From IMG/VR virus record IMGVR_UViG_3300022904_000001: a stretch of 44,286 bases of DNA; one strand, written 5' to 3'. A program made the position numbers and the translations under genes. The notes under the pieces are model-generated. The model did not search any database and was not told the origin of the DNA. It saw only the letters and a list, made by a program, of their open reading frames with translations. This DNA comes from a virus. Shown here one piece after another: positions 1-44,286 of this stretch (its first letter is position 1; the number at the start of each line of letters is the position of its first letter).

Positions 1-127
1 CTGCAACGGCCAGGGCGGCATCAACACCGGCAACGTCTGACCTGACCACCCAGAAGGGCCCGGAGAGGATTCCTCTCCGGGCCCTTCTGGGCATCCCCTC
101 ACGCCTTCAACGCAAGCATGCCCTCCC
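1..127. repeat. 127-bp terminal overlap, exact copy of 44160..44286 (circular contig closure)
   Basis: Read end to end; both copies are identical. The length is typical of an assembler k-mer overlap. Unique genome length is therefore 44159 bp. Confidence 0.9.
49..91. terminator. Bidirectional intrinsic-terminator-like hairpin (21-bp perfect arms)
   Basis: Arms cccagaagggcccggagagga / t / tcctctccgggcccttctggg. Lies between the convergent 44065..44199(+) gene and the 99..1916(-) gene. Same element as 44208..44250. Confidence 0.75.
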
Positions 128-1916
128 GCCAGTGGTACAGCGCGCCCATGTCATACAGCCTGGCCTCCGTCTGGCCATACGGCTGGCCATCCGGTTTGGC
201 CAGCGGCTCCGGGAAGCCGGCCAGCGTGCTGGCCCGGCGCAGAGTGGCCAACGTGATGGCCATCGGCCCGTCCTGGCCAGGCAGATTGGCCAGCGCTTCG
301 GCCAGTGTGACCGCACTGGCCAGCGCCGGCCGGGATTGGCCAGTGGCCACCGATGTCCAGGACTGGCCAAGGATCGGGCCAGTGGCCATGTCCAGGCCAG
401 AGACGATGGCCAGCGCTTCGGCCTCCGACAACCAGGGGACACGGAAGATCTCGAACTCGTCCGCTCTGGCCACTCCCCACACACCGCGCTCGCGCGACGT
501 GCAGGCCACGTAGTCCATCGTGTCCACCAACATCTTCCAGAGCTTGCGATCCCAGCGCGCGATGAAGCGGCCACCCTGGAAGCTCTCCCGGATGTCACCG
601 CCGTTGCCGCCGAAGATCGATGCGGACGCGCGCTGCGCCGCGACGATCACGTGCATCTTCAATTCGCGGCCCATGCACACGCTCTCCTGCATGGCCACGA
701 TGGCCGGCGACTGGACAGGCGGGTCCAGATCGGCCACCTCGAACGGTGCATCATCGGCCTGCGCCTGCTTGGCCGCGAGCATGATCTCTTTGCGCAGGCC
801 GCGCCAATACCTGATCAGCTTTTTGGCCTGGACGTTGGCCTCTTCGACCATGATGATCACGCGACGCTGGCCGACGAGCTCCTCCTCCGGCAGCTCGATG
901 CGTCGCTTGATCTCCTCGCCGATGGCCATCCACGTCTCATGCAGGTCGGCATCGCGGTACGCGTAGATCACTTGGTCTTTGCTGAGCTTGCCGCCACCCG
1001 CCCATCGCCAGTGCGAGAAGCGCTTCGGATCCAGGATGATTCCGCCGTCACCCTTCTCGATCCGCTGCACCATGAAGACGCGGGCAAGTACCGTCTTGCC
1101 GGTGCCCGCGGCGCCGGACATGAGGAAGTGGGGAGAGTCTTCGACCATGCTGACCTTGACGAGGTGGCCTTGCGCCTTGCGTCCGACGATCACCTCGTCA
1201 TCCGCACATTCCTCGATGGCCTTACGCAGGCTGGCGAAGGTCACCTCCCCGGGCGGCAGCGGCGCGGAGGAGAGGTCGACGCAGACGTTCGTGCCTGCCT
1301 CGCTCCACTCCCCGCGTACGGGCGCGGGGATGCCGAGCCGAGCGCCGACGTTCTCGGTGAGGGCTGCCTTGGATCGCGGATTCAGGGGCACGTGCACGGG
1401 CAGATGCACGCGCACTGTGCCTTGCGCTTCCTTGCCCCAGTTGGGAGGAAGCTCGATCGCCTCGCGGCCGGCGCGTTTGGTGTAGCGGCCACCGGTGAGC
1501 GAGAACAGCACGCGCGCCGCGGGATCGACGTACTCGCGGTTCAGCCGGCCGCGGCGCAGCAGATGAACAAATGATCTGGCAACCCACCACATCGCAATCA
1601 GCCAGGTAGCAAGAGCCCAGGCGACGGCGATCTTCCAGCCGGCCAGAGGCAGCAGGGCCAGCGGCACGGTCAGGGCAGCGTGCCGGCGCGCGAGACGCTG
1701 CCAGATCGGACCGCTCAGCGTCATGTACGGGCGAGCGCGGTAGTCGATCGTGGCGCGGTGCAGGAAGGTGGCGTTATCGCCGGGGCCGCGGAGCTGCTGG
1801 CCGGTGATGAGGTACCGGCCGAGGATGCGCAGCGGGAGCGGGACACGCGCGTGCTCGCCACGCCAGGAGATCAGTGGGGCCGAATTTTGAGGCACCTGAT
1901 CGACTCTAGCGCACAT
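99..1916 (-). CDS. FtsK/SpoIIIE-family DNA translocase, TraB-like architecture
   Basis: 605-aa ORF. N-terminal hydrophobic helices (LTVPLALLPLAGWKIAVAWALATWLIAMWWVA), Walker A GAAGTGKT, Walker B-like VIIMVEEAN, and a low-complexity C-terminal tail. Confidence 0.85.
   Translation of the reverse strand: MCARVDQVPQNSAPLISWRGEHARVPLPLRILGRYLITGQQLRGPGDNATFLHRATIDYRARPYMTLSGPIWQRLARRHAALTVPLALLPLAGWKIAVAWALATWLIAMWWVARSFVHLLRRGRLNREYVDPAARVLFSLTGGRYTKRAGREAIELPPNWGKEAQGTVRVHLPVHVPLNPRSKAALTENVGARLGIPAPVRGEWSEAGTNVCVDLSSAPLPPGEVTFASLRKAIEECADDEVIVGRKAQGHLVKVSMVEDSPHFLMSGAAGTGKTVLARVFMVQRIEKGDGGIILDPKRFSHWRWAGGGKLSKDQVIYAYRDADLHETWMAIGEEIKRRIELPEEELVGQRRVIIMVEEANVQAKKLIRYWRGLRKEIMLAAKQAQADDAPFEVADLDPPVQSPAIVAMQESVCMGRELKMHVIVAAQRASASIFGGNGGDIRESFQGGRFIARWDRKLWKMLVDTMDYVACTSRERGVWGVARADEFEIFRVPWLSEAEALAIVSGLDMATGPILGQSWTSVATGQSRPALASAVTLAEALANLPGQDGPMAITLATLRRASTLAGFPEPLAKPDGQPYGQTEARLYDMGALYHWREGMLALKA
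172..472. repeat. TGGCCA hexamer array 1 (14 copies in 301 bp) inside the 3' end of the translocase gene
   Basis: Copies start at 172,184,197,245,257,274,287,317,337,344,364,383,407,467. There are also several GGCCAG near-copies. The 17-mer tggccagcgcttcggcc is duplicated at 287 and 407. Confidence 0.9.
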
Positions 1917-4281: not shown

Positions 4282-4559
4282 TCAGCTCCCGAGGATGCGC
4301 CAGGCGATGATTCCGATGACGCCGGCAAGGGAGCCTCCGGCAGCGATGCGGCCGTAGAGGCTGCTCCGCCGGAGCGCGCCTGCCAGAGCTGCAACAGGCC
4401 GGGGGCGCCGATAAGTATTCCCGCCACGTACAGCGCCGTGTCGTTCGGATGGGGTGGCGGATCGAAGAACACGCCCGCCTGGCGGAACATGATCAGCCAC
4501 CCTCCCACCCATGCCACCGTGTCGCGCAGAAGCGTGGGCAGTCCAGGTCGCATGGTCAC
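4278..4559 (-). CDS. membrane protein (93 aa), lysis cassette
   Basis: Two hydrophobic segments. Follows the amidase gene. Confidence 0.5.
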   Translation of the reverse strand: MTMRPGLPTLLRDTVAWVGGWLIMFRQAGVFFDPPPHPNDTALYVAGILIGAPGLLQLWQARSGGAASTAASLPEAPLPASSESSPGASSGAE

Positions 4560-4603
4560 TCATGATCCACCTTACGGGGGAGAGGAAGTATCGGATCAGC
4601 AGC

Positions 4604-5473
4604 TCAGGAAGTCGGGTCTACCGGCTGGAGTTCCTTCAGCTCAGCCAGCAACTCCGCCGCCCGGGCGTCGATCTGCGCGGCCAGGATCTCGCGATCGTTA
4701 TCGTCCATCTGGACGTTCGCGAGGATCTTCTCTGCGGTGGCCTGCGTCTTCGCGACCGCGGCCAGAATCTGATTGCGGCGCGCGTCGGTGTACTGGATCC
4801 AGGTCTCCCACGGAAGGGAGCGCTCAGGATCGGCAGCGTCCTTGATCCTGCGAGCCATGAGCTGCTTGACCACCTCAGCAGCAACCTCGGAAGCGTCCAT
4901 GTCGTCGTCCTTGTCGTCGATGAAGCCCGCTTCCTTGCTCACCAAGGCAATGAAGCGGGACCACGGGAAAGACTTCCCGGGGTCGGTGTGCGTGCCGCCG
5001 TCCTGCGGGAACGCTTGCGTGATGTCCGCGTGACCGCAGAAGCCCTTCACGCCGGCAGCGACCTGCGCGGCGCTGAGCTTGCGGATCGGAATGTTCCACT
5101 TCCGCGCGTCCCGCGCTGCCTGCCTGGCCGCCTGCCGCAGAAGCGCGGCGTGGTACTCGTCGTCCCAGGTGCCGGCGCGCTTGACGGTAGTGCACAGCTC
5201 ATGGTGGATGCCGCGCTTGTTGCCCTGCGCGCGGGCGGTGTGCGCCTGATCCGCGGTGTGCACGCACTGAACAGTGGAGTTCGAGTCATGGAAGTAGTGC
5301 GCGCTCGTGCCGTCGGTGCGGCGCGCGTCGTACGCGGCGCCGTCTTCCGCGGATTCCGGCCGCGCGCTGCCCTCGGTCGTGTGGATGACCACCAGTTGGA
5401 CGGCGCTTCGGTTGGCGTTCGTCCAGGACTTCGGCGGGATCCAGAGGAGGTCCGGGTACTCGATGGACTTCAC
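4604..5473 (-). CDS. N-acetylmuramoyl-L-alanine amidase (amidase_2/PGRP-type) endolysin
   Basis: VVIHTTEG...SAHYF...GIHHE...CGHADI...THTDPG motifs, typical of the zinc amidase_2 fold. Position is after the tail genes. Confidence 0.8.
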   Translation of the reverse strand: MKSIEYPDLLWIPPKSWTNANRSAVQLVVIHTTEGSARPESAEDGAAYDARRTDGTSAHYFHDSNSTVQCVHTADQAHTARAQGNKRGIHHELCTTVKRAGTWDDEYHAALLRQAARQAARDARKWNIPIRKLSAAQVAAGVKGFCGHADITQAFPQDGGTHTDPGKSFPWSRFIALVSKEAGFIDDKDDDMDASEVAAEVVKQLMARRIKDAADPERSLPWETWIQYTDARRNQILAAVAKTQATAEKILANVQMDDNDREILAAQIDARAAELLAELKELQPVDPTS

Positions 5474-5610
5474 TGCATCAGCTCCGCGAGAGAGCCTGCG
5501 GCCAGGAAGGCGACGGCGAGCGCCAGCAGATTGACGCGAGAAGCGCTCACGAAAGCAGCCACCAGGCCGAGCACGACGGCAATCAGGTACAGGAATACGG
5601 CGATGGTCAT
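5470..5610 (-). CDS. small hydrophobic protein (46 aa), holin-like
   Basis: Internal ATG of ORF 5470..5679 with GGAAAGGAAG upstream. Almost entirely hydrophobic. ATGA overlap with the amidase start. Confidence 0.5.
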   Translation of the reverse strand: MTIAVFLYLIAVVLGLVAAFVSASRVNLLALAVAFLAAGSLAELMQ

Positions 5611-13021: not shown

Positions 13022-13482
13022 GGCGCCTGTACCCACGCATTCTCAATGATCATCGGAAGATTGATCGTCATCACCCGGTACATCGCACCTTCCTTGCCAC
13101 CGATCTGGACGTAGCCGGCTTCCGCGCTCAGGTTCTGCCCACCCTGGCCGAGGAGGTCGATCGCCATGGCGAGGCCATCCAGGGTGAAGTCCGCGGAGTA
13201 GCGCGTCATCAGATCGTCCACGGCTTCCATGATCTTCGGATCGATCATGTCTTGCGGTTCGCCGATCATGTTCGTGTAGATGCGCACGTTGAGCACGACA
13301 TACGCGGTGGTCACGGCCAGGCCGGAGTAGGACGGCGCAGGCCCGACGCTGGCCACCCAGACCGCGGCGTAGATGTCGGTGCCGGGTGGCGACTTCGGCT
13401 CGTGCTGGTTGACGAAGCTGAAGCGCCCGCTGGCCATGGCGTGACTGGCCACGGACTCGACGAGATCAAGGGAATTGATCAT
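13018..13482 (-). CDS. head-tail joining / tail terminator-like protein (154 aa)
   Basis: Internal ATG (MINSLDLV...) with ATGA overlap. Called from synteny between the gp10-like gene and the tube gene. Confidence 0.5.
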   Translation of the reverse strand: MINSLDLVESVASHAMASGRFSFVNQHEPKSPPGTDIYAAVWVASVGPAPSYSGLAVTTAYVVLNVRIYTNMIGEPQDMIDPKIMEAVDDLMTRYSADFTLDGLAMAIDLLGQGGQNLSAEAGYVQIGGKEGAMYRVMTINLPMIIENAWVQAP

Positions 13483-28269: not shown

Positions 28270-28550
28270 TAGATGTGCAGGATCGGCCAGGGGAGCCTGC
28301 ACATGATGTTTTCCCTGCTCAGGGGCCGTTTTTCGAGCAAGTGTGCAGGGTTGTGCAGGGTATTTCCCTACTCGGTTCTTACATTGAGAAAACCCCTTAC
28401 TCCCTGGAGCCCTTTTATATATACGTACTTTTACCTTGCACATCTTGCACAAGAGAGTAAATAAGGGGGGTGAGCTGCAAAAACGGGTGTGCAGGGTACC
28501 GATCGGTACCCTGCACACACCCTGCACCGCAGGCCAGACCCTGCACACCT
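28270..28550. promoter_or_regulatory. Origin-of-replication-like region: at least 8 TGTGCAGG(G) iterons, an AT-rich patch and a 32-bp perfect palindrome
   Basis: Iterons at 28275, 28296(rc), 28341, 28351, 28487-28518 (palindrome gtgtgcagggtaccga|tcggtaccctgcacac), 28520(rc) and 28539(rc). AT-rich segment cccttttatatatacgtacttttacc at about 28410-28436. No credible ORF. Confidence 0.6.
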
Positions 28551-42177: not shown

Positions 42178-42390
42178 ATGGCAAAGCTGATGCTGATCGG
42201 CTCAGTCGCCCAGGTCGAGTTGACCAGCGACTCGCTCGAAGGTCAGGTATTCGCCACCTGCGTGATACATCCCGCCTTCAGGCGGGAGTACGGCGGACTC
42301 TGCTCCTGGGCAGCGCGCTATGACGACATGAACGACGCGACCGGGTACGCCGCGGATCACGCGGACACAGGAAGGCAGGATGCATCGTGA
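42178..42390 (+). CDS. hypothetical protein (70 aa)
   Basis: ORF track. The ATG directly follows the upstream TAG. Confidence 0.55.
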   Translation: MAKLMLIGSVAQVELTSDSLEGQVFATCVIHPAFRREYGGLCSWAARYDDMNDATGYAADHADTGRQDAS

Positions 42391-42611
42391 CCACGGTCTA
42401 CTTAGCGATCATCGCCCCCGACAACCAGGGGCCGACAGTCCTCGGCGTGTTCAGCACGCTCGAAGCGGCCCAAGCAGCACACCAGACGCCCGGCGAGTGG
42501 GAGTACTCCCGCGTGTATGGCCAGTGGTGGCAGTGCAACTACCCCAGTGGTGTCGGTCACAACGACAACGAGGTCCACCCGCTCGAACTGGACGAAAGGA
42601 CGCAACCGTGA
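42387..42611 (+). CDS. hypothetical protein (74 aa)
   Basis: ORF track. GTGA overlaps on both sides. Confidence 0.55.
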   Translation: MTTVYLAIIAPDNQGPTVLGVFSTLEAAQAAHQTPGEWEYSRVYGQWWQCNYPSGVGHNDNEVHPLELDERTQP

Positions 42612-43504
42612 GCACGCTCGGATCCCTCTGGACAGGCGCCGTCGCCTACGTCTCGCTCGGCGTGGGCGCCGGCCTGTCCATGGCTGGCAACCTGGCGGAC
42701 ACCTACCGCACCCGCGGCGCCGGCCAGGTGGACGCGCTGGACAAGATCCTCGCACTCGCCTGGCCGGCGCTGGTCATCCTGGCCATCGAGATGTTCGTGT
42801 CCGAGCGGTGGAAGCGCTCGACCATGTTCCAGATCTGGCGATGGACCGGCTGTCTGGCCATCGGCTCGATGGCCATGGTGGCCAGTTGGACACACCTGCA
42901 CGACCTGTTGGCCAGTCGTGGCCAGTTGGCCGTCGTGGCCATCCTCGGACCGCTGGCCATCGACGGCATGGCCATCATGGCCACCGGCCTGATTCTGTCC
43001 ACCCGTGGGCAGTCTGGCCAACTGGCCACGGCGCCGGCCAGTGCGCCTACGGTTGGCCAAGCGCTGGCCAACAAGGACATGGCCACGCTGGCCAACTGGC
43101 CAGCGGAGGTGGCCACGCTGGACGCGATCGTGCAGGCCGAAGCGCTCATCCGTGGCCAGGAGCTGGCCAAGCAGATGGCCAGTCCGCAGGAGCCGACGTT
43201 TGAGGCTGGCCAGTTGGCCGATGACCTGGACGCGTGGGAGTGCGGGGTGGATGCGGCGATTCATGACGCCGGCCAGGAGCTGGCCAGGCAGGCGGAGGCC
43301 GTGGCCAACGGGCACCTTGCCGAGGACCCGCCTGTGGTGCCCGCGGTGCCTCCGGCGGCGGCGCTGCTGATCCAGGAGTGCTTGGCCAAGCAGGATGCCA
43401 AGAGCGCTATCGATGCGCTGGTAGCTGCTGAGCACGGTGTCTCGCCGCGGCAGGCGAGGCGGTGGCGGACGGAGGTTGCGCGCACGCTCCCTCCTCTGCT
43501 ATAG
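42608..43504 (+). CDS. DUF2637-like polytopic membrane protein with low-complexity linker and C-terminal HTH-like end (298 aa)
   Basis: GTGA start. Four hydrophobic segments. ..ASWTHLHDLLA...LGPLAIDGMAIMATGLIL resembles the DUF2637 S-x-x-H...PL.vDG signature. C-terminus ..HGVSPRQARRWR.. Confidence 0.45.
   Translation: MSTLGSLWTGAVAYVSLGVGAGLSMAGNLADTYRTRGAGQVDALDKILALAWPALVILAIEMFVSERWKRSTMFQIWRWTGCLAIGSMAMVASWTHLHDLLASRGQLAVVAILGPLAIDGMAIMATGLILSTRGQSGQLATAPASAPTVGQALANKDMATLANWPAEVATLDAIVQAEALIRGQELAKQMASPQEPTFEAGQLADDLDAWECGVDAAIHDAGQELARQAEAVANGHLAEDPPVVPAVPPAAALLIQECLAKQDAKSAIDALVAAEHGVSPRQARRWRTEVARTLPPLL
42780..43388. repeat. TGGCCA hexamer array 2 (25 copies in 609 bp) inside the DUF2637-like gene
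   Basis: Copies start at 42780,42855,42870,42879,42909,42919,42936,42954,42969,42978,43015,43023,43054,43065,43080,43089,43097,43110,43153,43164,43176,43207,43281,43302,43383. Confidence 0.9.
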
Positions 43505-43516
43505 TAGAGATATAAG
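43495..43516 (+). promoter_or_regulatory. Conserved promoter motif, long form (tctgcTATAGTagagatataag), overlapping the stop of 42608..43504
   Basis: -10 at 43500-43505. Confidence 0.6.
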
Positions 43517-43536
43517 GAACGAGCGAGGGAGCGGAC

Positions 43537-43719
43537 ATGGCGGACCAGAAGTACCCCCACGACCTGACGATCAGCGAGCTGCGCAGCGACCTGGAGCGGG
43601 CGCAGACGGCACTCACGGAAGCGCTCGGCGCCGGCAACCGGACCATTGCTCACAACCAAGTGAACAGCATCATCGAGATCCAGCGGATGATCGAAGACCT
43701 TAGGGGCGAGAAGGCCTGA
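43537..43719 (+). CDS. hypothetical helical protein (60 aa)
   Basis: ORF track. GGGAG RBS. Confidence 0.55.
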   Translation: MADQKYPHDLTISELRSDLERAQTALTEALGAGNRTIAHNQVNSIIEIQRMIEDLRGEKA

Positions 43720-43740
43720 ACCTTAGGCTGCCAGGGAAAA

Positions 43741-43774
43741 CAAGGGGGTCCACGCTTAAGCGTGGACCCCCTTG
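43741..43774. terminator. Hairpin with 15-bp perfect arms and TTAA loop
   Basis: caagggggtccacgc-ttaa-gcgtggacccccttg. Confidence 0.7.
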
Positions 43775-43789
43775 TCGTGCCATGGTTCG

Positions 43790-43806
43790 TCTGCTATAGT
43801 AGACAC
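43790..43806 (+). promoter_or_regulatory. Conserved promoter motif, leaderless (tctgcTATAGTagacacATG)
   Basis: -10 at 43795-43800. ATG at 43807. Confidence 0.6.
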
Positions 43807-43998
43807 ATGATGAACAACGGAGACAGCGGCAGTCAGTATTCCGAGAAGGCGCTCAAGCGGCGCCAGCAGCAGGCCATCGCGCAGGACATGAAGCGGCGCG
43901 GAGGCAACCCCGTTACCGTGTCCGACCTGCGGCAGCGGCACAGCGTCGGCAACCGGCCGGGGACCGGCTTCCTGAGCACGCTCCTGCATCACGGCTAG
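43807..43998 (+). CDS. hypothetical basic protein (63 aa), leaderless
   Basis: Internal ATG (MMNNGDSGS...) of ORF 43762..43998. Confidence 0.55.
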   Translation: MMNNGDSGSQYSEKALKRRQQQAIAQDMKRRGGNPVTVSDLRQRHSVGNRPGTGFLSTLLHHG

Positions 43999-44008
43999 GT
44001 CTTCACTC

Positions 44009-44052
44009 CTGATTGTTGATCTGCTATACTAGAAGTAGCGATCAACGATCAG
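44009..44052 (+). promoter_or_regulatory. Promoter motif (ctgcTATACT) bracketed by a 13-bp inverted repeat (operator-like)
   Basis: ctgattgttgatc (44009-44021) and gatcaacgatcag (44040-44052), matching 12 of 13. -10 at 44025-44030. Confidence 0.5.
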
Positions 44053-44064
44053 CAGGAGGTCACC

Positions 44065-44199
44065 ATGCTCACCCGCTTCGTCCGCTTCGTCCTCAGCGCC
44101 TGGAAGGCCTGCGAGACCTGCAAGGGTTCCGGCCAGCACAACGGCAAGAAGTGCCCAGCCTGCAACGGCCAGGGCGGCATCAACACCGGCAACGTCTGA
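44065..44199 (+). CDS. 44-aa DnaJ-CR-type zinc-finger micro-protein (2x CxxCxGxG)
   Basis: MLTRFVRFVLSAWKACETCKGSGQHNGKKCPACNGQGGINTGNV. AGGAGG RBS. The 3' end is also present at 1..40. Confidence 0.5.
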   Translation: MLTRFVRFVLSAWKACETCKGSGQHNGKKCPACNGQGGINTGNV

Positions 44200-44286
44200 C
44201 CTGACCACCCAGAAGGGCCCGGAGAGGATTCCTCTCCGGGCCCTTCTGGGCATCCCCTCACGCCTTCAACGCAAGCATGCCCTCCC
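44160..44286. repeat. Second copy of the 127-bp closure overlap
   Basis: Identical to 1..127. Includes the terminator copy at 44208..44250. Confidence 0.9.

Follow-up and report, generated by a model that had tools for sequence, protein, structure and literature searches.

A 44,286-nucleotide stretch of viral DNA (IMG/VR virus record IMGVR_UViG_3300022904_000001; the whole stretch is referred to here as the window) carries two dense arrays of the hexamer TGGCCA inside two genes, one for an FtsK/TraB-like double-stranded DNA (dsDNA) translocase (tra) and one for a DUF2637-like membrane protein that ends in a predicted helix-turn-helix (HTH) domain. These arrays are under selection at the DNA level. 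We assign a probability of roughly 0.5 to the reading that they are cis-acting, putative protein-binding sites resembling clt (the cis-acting transfer locus), placed within the coding sequence of a conjugation-derived translocation module, and that the HTH domain would use them to tether the DNA beside the pump.

The window contains 55 copies of TGGCCA, compared with 12.9±3.6 (maximum 21) in dinucleotide-preserving shuffles. Thirty-nine of them fall in two clusters, 14 at 172-472 (array 1) and 25 at 42780-43388 (array 2). Array 1 lies in the last 125 codons of the translocase gene, which holds two further copies deeper inside, at 692 and 923. Beyond the two genes and their edges we find about 13 copies in ~41 kb, which corresponds to background level. 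The sole other local grouping, three copies within 100 bp in the tail-gene region (13350-13451), could be due to chance.

A sequence-only reading of this DNA had described array 2 as 25 exact copies in 609 bp, lying in several codon phases and running from the last transmembrane (TM) segments of the membrane protein through a low-complexity linker. An exact count indeed returns 25 copies, and three phases are used: 19 sites read xTG.GCC.Axx (encoding LA, MA, or VA), five read xxT.GGC.CAx (GQ), and one reads TGG.CCA (WP). The second of these phases requires a T-ending codon, which is rare in a genome with ~85% G+C at third codon positions (GC3). Ten sites fall in the TM part, 14 in the disordered linker, and one in the HTH domain.

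We compared the counts for both arrays with three nulls of 2000 replicates each, and not a single replicate reached the observed value for either array under any of them. The 25 copies in the membrane-protein gene contrast with 4.7±1.8 (maximum 11) when the protein is held fixed and codons follow genome usage, with 8.1±2.1 (maximum 15) when the gene's own synonymous codons are permuted, and with 1.1 when the codon order is shuffled. The translocase gene has 14 copies in its last 393 nt, for which the corresponding values are 2.35, 5.2, and 0.45. Because the counts exceed all codon-matched nulls, both the amino acid sequence and the codon choice are bent toward TGGCCA.

We found no preference in the bases flanking TGGCCA, and the word is thus a bare hexamer. 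Spacing within array 2 is irregular (6-45 bp, median ~17) and displays just the 3-bp coding period, with no helical (~10.5 bp) periodicity. The ends of the window overlap by 127 bp, and the window thus represents a circular genome of 44,159 bp, in which array 1 and array 2 are separated by ~0.94 kb across the junction. This is in line with the sequence-only reading, which had placed the arrays on the two sides of a circular junction and had noted an extended context common to both; this context, AGCGCTGGCCAA, occurs once per array, at 43060 (+) and at 286 (-).

Homologues of the two proteins form at least 168 and at least 171 clusters in metagenomes, many of them on contigs of 41-46 kb, and we examined ~60 relative loci. 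TGGCCA arrays persist in both genes down to ~51% translocase identity, and phages with a translocase just ~27% identical have them as well. Each array-bearing gene tested in these relatives beats the conservative synonymous-permutation null. Sites are found in the same protein region of the translocase as array 1, yet their exact positions turn over, and indels insert word-rich stretches even at 84% protein identity. The arrays are always located in the translocase and membrane-protein genes, which always adjoin each other in this phage family, but their placement varies: they occupy the tra 3' end or the tra 5' part, and there are three arrays in locus L002. In a few relatives, TGGCCA is also raised in the flanks, up to ~2 per kb. 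The codon-matched enrichment that the sequence-only reading had left to be established thus persists beyond the window, and the relatives retain the hexamers in both genes along with the genes themselves.

Some lineages use other words in the same places. One of these words is TGGACA, one mismatch away from TGGCCA. A sister lineage has CGGACA, extended to CGCGGACA, which occupies both genes at once and occurs in either orientation. The peptide sequence of the linker changes with the word, LA, MA, VA, GQ, and WP accompanying TGGCCA, LDT and VQ accompanying TGGACA, and ADT accompanying CGCGGACA. The non-palindromic sister word occurs both ways within one gene, which points to dsDNA as the target. 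When loci are sorted by their membrane-protein HTH, the 19 loci of the type ...RRWR (RRLR in L069) carry TGGCCA, with 17-36 copies in the membrane-protein gene and 16-27 in tra (2 in L051), whereas the 10 loci of the type ...RRWL carry CGGACA, with 14-26 and 8-15 copies, respectively; the tra numbers refer to loci in which the tra gene was found. Within a genome the word is identical in both genes, TGGCCA in RRWR loci and CGGACA in RRWL loci, and this agreement supports a single reader for both arrays. The suggestion of the sequence-only reading that the two arrays serve one DNA-level function is likewise supported, as the word becomes CGGACA in both genes together.

We compared the two candidate readers, the membrane-protein HTH domain and the translocase C-terminal domain, across translocase types. 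These comparisons replaced an analysis of translocase recognition-helix residues against the word, which we rejected as confounded, since the codons of this helix are themselves array sites (LAT = cTGGCCAcc). Both words occur on both translocase backgrounds. L005 and L062 combine a window-type translocase (61% identical to that of the window, 26% to that of L016) with an RRWL membrane protein (64% identical to that of L016), and their tra 3' array holds nine CGGACA versus three TGGCCA. L042 and L053, whose translocases are 26-27% identical, are of the RRWR type and have 25-26 TGGCCA in tra. Near-identical translocase recognition helices go with different words, TGGCCA in L028 and L069 versus CGGACA in L005. 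In a column scan of the membrane protein we found seven columns that separate the two classes, five of which lie in the HTH domain (251, 265, 269, 272, and 287). Position 287 is the only column invariant in both classes, being Arg with TGGCCA and Leu with CGGACA. The translocase has 10 class-separating columns, none of them in its C-terminal domain (residues 534-605). A peptide proxy applied to 120 homologues agrees with the link between HTH and word. In these sequence comparisons the word tracks the membrane-protein HTH rather than the translocase type or the winged helix-turn-helix (wHTH) at the C terminus of the translocase, and the membrane-protein HTH is probably the reader of the word.

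Features of the window discussed in the text (1-based coordinates; AF2, AlphaFold2)
Feature	Coordinates	Strand	Remarks
Array 1	172..472		14 exact TGGCCA, 3' end of translocase gene
Array 2	42780..43388		25 exact TGGCCA and a few TGGACA/TGTCCA variants, within membrane-protein gene
FtsK/TraB-like dsDNA translocase gene	99..1916	-	605 aa, convergent to membrane-protein gene
Small C-terminal domain of translocase, residues 534-605	102..317	-	confident AF2 segment; overwritten by array 1
DUF2637-like membrane-protein gene	42608..43504	+	GTG start, 298 aa; four TM helices, disordered linker, C-terminal HTH
Coding region of C-terminal HTH, residues 249-293	43352..43486	+	from AF2 model; candidate word reader
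Small gene	43537-43719	+	60 aa; between arrays
Small gene	43809-43998	+	~63 aa; between arrays
Zinc-ribbon protein gene	44065-44199	+	44 aa; between arrays; hydrophobic N-terminus, CxxCxGxG
Perfect hairpin	44208..44250		21-bp stem; between convergent genes; also at 49-91 via terminal overlap

The gene for the membrane protein overlaps its upstream gene by 4 bp. Its product scores 20.5 bits against Pfam DUF2637 (PF10935), under the cut-off of 22.8, and many of its homologues with 45-57% identity carry PF10935. In the AF2 model, four helices (residues 3-36, 43-64, 72-104, and 108-136) are followed by a linker with a predicted local distance difference test (pLDDT) score below 50, which varies strongly among relatives, and by a three-helix bundle (residues 249-293) with a pLDDT of ~96. 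Helix 3 of this bundle is PRQARRWRTEVART, and the codon for Arg-287 is located at 43466-43468. The HTH region returns weak, sub-threshold Pfam matches to HTH_Tnp_1, HTH_23, and HTH_28. A Foldseek search with the whole membrane-protein model gave no significant match, and local matches of the C-terminal bundle to MuA I-beta and homeodomains (probability 0.85-0.89, E ~2) are not significant. As modeled, a monomeric three-helix HTH reading ~6 bp would fit bare, irregularly spaced hexamers.

The product of the convergent gene is an FtsK/TraB-like pump by homology and fold. It has a RecA-type motor with the Walker A motif GAAGTGKT, and in the AF2 model (pLDDT 83.9) long hydrophobic, TM-like helices in its N-terminal part (residues 69-141). 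Foldseek matches the model to the TcpA coupling protein (1.3e-13) and to the FtsK motor (4e-12), and Pfam matches are sub-threshold only. By tblastn we recovered 48 plasmid records, 45 of them from Streptomyces, with 27-30% identity over 62-80% of the protein and a best E value of 1e-32; the matched proteins are Streptomyces plasmid Tra, FtsK-like, and DUF87 proteins. The C-terminal domain has no Pfam match. Its sequence shows an excisionase/MerR-like winged-helix pattern, VTLAEA...ITLATLRRA...GFPEP...ARLYD...W, which is conserved across translocase subtypes.

Judged by its gene content, the window is the genome of a tailed phage, which is uncultured and probably actinobacterial. The window encodes a capsid protein, portal, large terminase, and Clp-type prohead protease, an amidase and an endonuclease VII for lysis and recombination, and, for replication, a PrimPol/D5 primase and two helicases. 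Pfam scans of 38 window proteins returned no integrase, ParA, or methyltransferase, and no member of the ParA, ParB, or ParM families that would accompany a partition centromere of the parS, parC, or parH type. Among cultured phages, Streptomyces phage Dagobah is the nearest (41% identity in the portal). Its translocase homologue has 309 aa and matches the ATPase region only; there are no word arrays near this gene, which makes Dagobah an uninformative comparison. One relative (L089) sits on a contig binned to a Streptomyces metagenome-assembled genome. Searches against plasmids and phages gave no match for 42380-44286 by blastn and none for the membrane protein by tblastn; no cultured phage has the membrane protein, and by these searches its family is known from metagenomes only. 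Of the functions raised in the sequence-only reading (replication, packaging, and spread), this context favors spread or transfer of the DNA and speaks against the other two.

How might such a module work? It would consist of the FtsK/TraB-like pump and the DUF2637 membrane protein, which by position and architecture would be its Spd-like (spread-protein-like) partner. The membrane protein would insert into the membrane, and the long flexible linker would allow its monomeric, homeodomain-like HTH to bind any of ~40 irregularly spaced 6-bp words, namely those of its own gene and of the translocase gene next to it. Many weak sites together with an oligomeric membrane protein could provide for strong, genome-specific tethering next to the translocase. 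The translocase would then load on the tethered DNA and transport it, e.g., through hyphal septa or into spore compartments. Selection on the DNA, the agreement of the word between the two genes, the homology and fold of the pump, and the layout of the membrane protein come from the analysis; binding, the identity of the reader, tethering and hand-over of the DNA to the pump, and the biological purpose, be it spread across septa, segregation into spores, or another, are the parts of this scheme that we infer.

We compared the arrays to systems in which short DNA words serve membrane-associated dsDNA pumps. TraB-type translocases bind short repeats at clt, which often overlaps the tra 3' end (PMC3583192, PMC4447253), and in the former the recognition of TraB recognition sequences (TRS) is assigned to helix alpha-3 of the TraB wHTH, citing Vogelmann 2011. 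As in the clt/TRS systems of pSVH1, pJV1, pWTY27, and pIJ101, a cluster of short, element-specific words is found here at the 3' end of an FtsK-like tra gene, where array 1 is located, and these clusters would likewise mark the DNA of the element for its dsDNA translocase. Published clt loci contain 3-9 co-oriented copies of 7-9-bp direct repeats, whereas the window has a bare 6-bp palindrome in 14 plus 25 copies and the phage family a 6-bp palindrome or a both-orientation word in 14-36 copies per array. The phage also differs in having a second array, in the convergent neighbor that encodes the membrane protein, in that the element is a phage genome, and in that the comparative evidence points to the membrane-protein HTH rather than the translocase wHTH. 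The plasmids pPR2 and pFRL6 each carry a DUF2637 gene immediately upstream of a homologous tra gene; pPR2 has seven copies of GACCGGAC near tra, and pFRL6 has six copies of CTGGGTCC inside the tra 3' end. On a Streptomyces goshikiensis plasmid (L012, NZ_CP108772), ~19 copies of GGTTCCG are found at 5022-5420, in the Pro/Val-rich linker of a TM/linker/HTH gene (4320-5528) immediately upstream of tra, which corresponds to the architecture in the phage with another word. These plasmid clusters near tra match the published clt/TRS biology (PMC4170104, PMC3583192, PMC4447253).

Two Spd proteins also invite comparison with the membrane protein. SpdA2 of pIJ101 binds a short palindrome (sps) inside its own gene (PMC4170104). 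Both cases thus involve a spread-gene product and sites within its own coding sequence, putative ones in the phage, and a DNA motif that shapes the amino acid sequence; sps, however, is 12 bp long and present in 2-3 copies, SpdA2 is small and soluble, and the associated phenotype is plasmid stability. SpdB2 of pSVH1 is a four-TM protein that oligomerizes, binds dsDNA, and interacts with TraB, and SpdB2 homologues have been noted on actinophages and proposed to help phage DNA to spread (PMC4447253). Like the phage protein it is encoded beside the translocase, but its DNA binding is reported as non-specific and no word arrays have been described in spdB2. Since pIJ101 SpdB has no Pfam match at E <= 0.01, PF10935 included, we do not equate SpdB2 with DUF2637. 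The FtsK orienting polar sequences (KOPS) and the SpoIIIE recognition sequences (SRS) also guide membrane-associated, hexameric dsDNA pumps of the same fold with short words, yet those are 8 bp long, strongly polar, distributed genome-wide, and read by the gamma domain of the pump, whereas the phage words lack polarity and are restricted to two genes. A membrane protein of phage phi29, p16.7, has a C-terminal homeodomain-like domain and attaches phage DNA to the membrane; it binds DNA without sequence specificity, serves replication, and is not known to have word arrays or a translocase partner. In the literature that we searched (on TGGCCA with Streptomyces and phage, on FtsK with DUF2637 in phage, on DUF2637, and on phage-borne FtsK and SpdB2), the arrays are undescribed.

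Several observations weigh against the membrane-protein HTH as the reader and against the tethering scheme built on it. The membrane-protein tree has a single origin of the RRWL/CGGACA state, and in this gene the array and the HTH coding region are physically linked, so that the truly independent support amounts to roughly one recombinant lineage (L005/L062) and one split between clades. The pattern of HTH and word could also stem from a shared host factor. L001 is of the RRWR type, yet TGGACA predominates in it, in part owing to a 42-bp tandem repeat; L049, L065, and L076 are RRWR loci with weak arrays; and in L051 the membrane-protein gene holds 27 sites and tra just two. The HTH assignment itself is a prediction drawn from the AF2 model, the sub-threshold Pfam matches, and the non-significant Foldseek matches. 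Finally, at published clt sites the reader is the wHTH of the translocase and not an Spd protein, and the DNA binding of SpdB2 is reported as non-specific (PMC4170104).

In a classical clt, the words would be read by the C-terminal winged helix of the translocase itself, and the membrane-protein gene would be a passive carrier of array 2. The position of array 1 at the tra 3' end, shared with many clt loci (PMC3583192) and with the CTGGGTCC cluster of pFRL6, fits this arrangement, as do the confident, winged-helix-like C-terminal domain of the translocase and the role of helix alpha-3 in reading the 8-bp TRS on Streptomyces plasmids (PMC3583192). We nevertheless regard it as unlikely: TGGCCA is retained with the divergent translocases of L042 and L053, which differ in their recognition helix, near-identical helices in L028, L069, and L005 go with different words, no column in residues 534-605 separates the classes, and neither copy number nor orientation of the words resembles the published repeats. 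A host protein, such as a nucleoid-associated or segregation factor or the septal translocase of the host, or another phage protein could instead bind the words, which would then differ because the hosts differ. There are small HTH proteins in actinobacteria that read 4-6-bp words (Gbn and GATC, PMC9239103), the word stays the same across phage proteins that have diverged widely, and the correlation between HTH and word could be a marker of clade or host. This explanation appears less likely still, given that sites in the window drop to background outside the two genes, that the arrays of relatives are found in these same genes (with raised flanks in a few), and that the class-separating residues concentrate in the membrane-protein HTH domain. 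The three small genes that separate the arrays show poor conservation in relatives and are therefore unlikely to encode a reader.

The remaining alternatives do not involve DNA transfer. The arrays could be iterons of a replication initiator, for which RepAM of pMEA300 offers an actinomycete precedent, as it binds 8-bp repeats inside its own gene (PMC2440964), and the two site clusters indeed flank a stretch of ~0.9 kb. RepAM, however, recognizes hairpin-forming repeats at a nick site (PMC2440964), and the phage has a separate and better origin candidate: at 28270-28550, ~11 (A)CC(C/T)TGCACA iterons in both orientations surround an AT-rich stretch (28360-28470). This region lies between genes, immediately downstream of the PrimPol/D5 primase gene and within the kilobase of lowest GC content in the genome, and by its sequence is likely the replication origin. 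Between the arrays the GC content is 0.52-0.72 in 100-bp windows, with no long AT-rich unwinding element standing out, and the arrays track the tra and DUF2637 genes rather than replication genes; we therefore consider an origin function very improbable. Scarcely more credit, and if anything slightly less, is due to restriction-modification, in which the clusters would be methylation switches or decoys comparable to the GATC clusters at oriC or P1 pac. TGGCCA is a type II palindrome (the MscI/BalI site) without flank preference, and the P1 pac site has hexamer repeats with Dam sites inside a coding region. Yet the Pfam scans of the 38 window proteins revealed no methyltransferase or nuclease pair, elsewhere in the genome TGGCCA occurs at the expected frequency, sister lineages have the non-palindromic words CGCGGACA and TGGACA where the window has TGGCCA arrays, and the terminase genes are ~20 kb away. 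That the arrays have no DNA-level function at all, and are a by-product of an Ala/Leu/Gly/Gln-rich, low-complexity protein or of slippage repeats, we find barely credible. The linkers are of low complexity and some relatives have true tandem repeats there, but the counts are 3-5 times those of the nulls with the protein fixed, the sites occupy three phases (one of them at the cost of rare T-ending codons), they extend into TM helices and into a conserved folded domain of the second gene on the other strand, and both genes switch word together. We also tried two known binding sites as candidates for the words. A DnaA box was rejected for TGGACA/TGTCCA, which has only a 6-bp core in common with the Streptomyces box TTGTCCACA, while the dominant words TGGCCA and CGCGGACA do not fit it, and an AdpA site (TGGCSNGWWY) was rejected because the flanks do not fit.

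Returning to the clt-like tethering module, binding sites inside the gene of the binder and clt loci are an already known theme in actinomycete conjugative elements. What is new here is that the sites are phage-borne, form a dense array of a 6-bp palindrome, and cover two genes, and that the likely reader is an Spd-like membrane protein and not the pump. We can only tentatively generalize this to a large, uncultured family of actinobacterial phages with a conjugation-derived module, whose membrane-anchored, monomeric, homeodomain-like HTH would read dozens of 6-8-bp words written into synonymous positions of its own gene and of the neighboring pump gene. These words would be a self-marking address label for capture of the phage genome at the membrane and for its virion-free pumping between hyphal compartments or cells, and the specificity code would be simple and evolvable, with Arg-287 specifying TGGCCA and Leu-287 specifying CGCGGACA. 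Should the clt-like reading be correct, phages of mycelial actinobacteria would have taken over the Streptomyces-type machinery for dsDNA conjugation and spread together with its cis address, which would provide a concrete way for a phage genome to spread or segregate independently of virions. DUF2637/Spd-like partners, so far without a defined function, would acquire a sequence-specific DNA-reading role, and the Arg-287/Leu-287 pair with TGGCCA/CGCGGACA would represent a natural specificity switch. The arrays are a DNA code layered over coding sequence, strong enough to set the amino acid composition of a linker, and short-word arrays in tra and DUF2637 genes may serve as a search rule for such modules in metagenomes.

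True tandem repeats are present in the linkers of two relatives. In L001 (8449-8600), four 42-bp units encode SNDVQPSVQLDTPL, each with three TGGACA and one TGTCCA, and in the membrane-protein gene of L011 (5312-6163) GQSVAS is repeated four times; arrays can thus grow by duplication. Contigs break in or near the module, at the end of L047 and at the starts of L004, L011, and L082, and one of them ends inside the membrane-protein linker. Hypervariable, repeat-rich arrays may interrupt assembly. A more distant phage group (L037, L039, and L040), with translocases 31-34% identical, has zero TGGCCA in 9.8 kb in two loci. There, clusters of CGGACG/GGACGGA are found in and beside the DUF2637-like gene of L037 (6063-6681), and clusters of CGGACG/CGCGTC inside the translocase gene span of L039 and L040.

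The stretch between the two arrays contains further elements. The perfect hairpin between the convergent genes is probably a bidirectional terminator, and a perfect 18-bp palindrome at 43740-43775, after the 60-aa gene, is probably a terminator as well, both judged from their sequence and position. The 44-aa zinc-ribbon protein resembles the DnaJ central domain and Anti-TRAP and is kept in the close relative L014. Each of the three small genes has an upstream promoter-like motif, CTGCTATAGTAGA, an extended -10 element (TGnTATAGT) that is found upstream of genes at about a dozen places, among them 25190(-), 28249(-), 33579(+), 41669(-), 41928(-), 41982(+), 43496(+), 43791(+), and 44021(+). A search with up to two mismatches returned 19 matches versus 0.09 expected, a number in which some sites are counted on both strands, as the motif is a near-palindrome. 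CTGCTATAGTAGA may represent a phage-specific promoter or operator.

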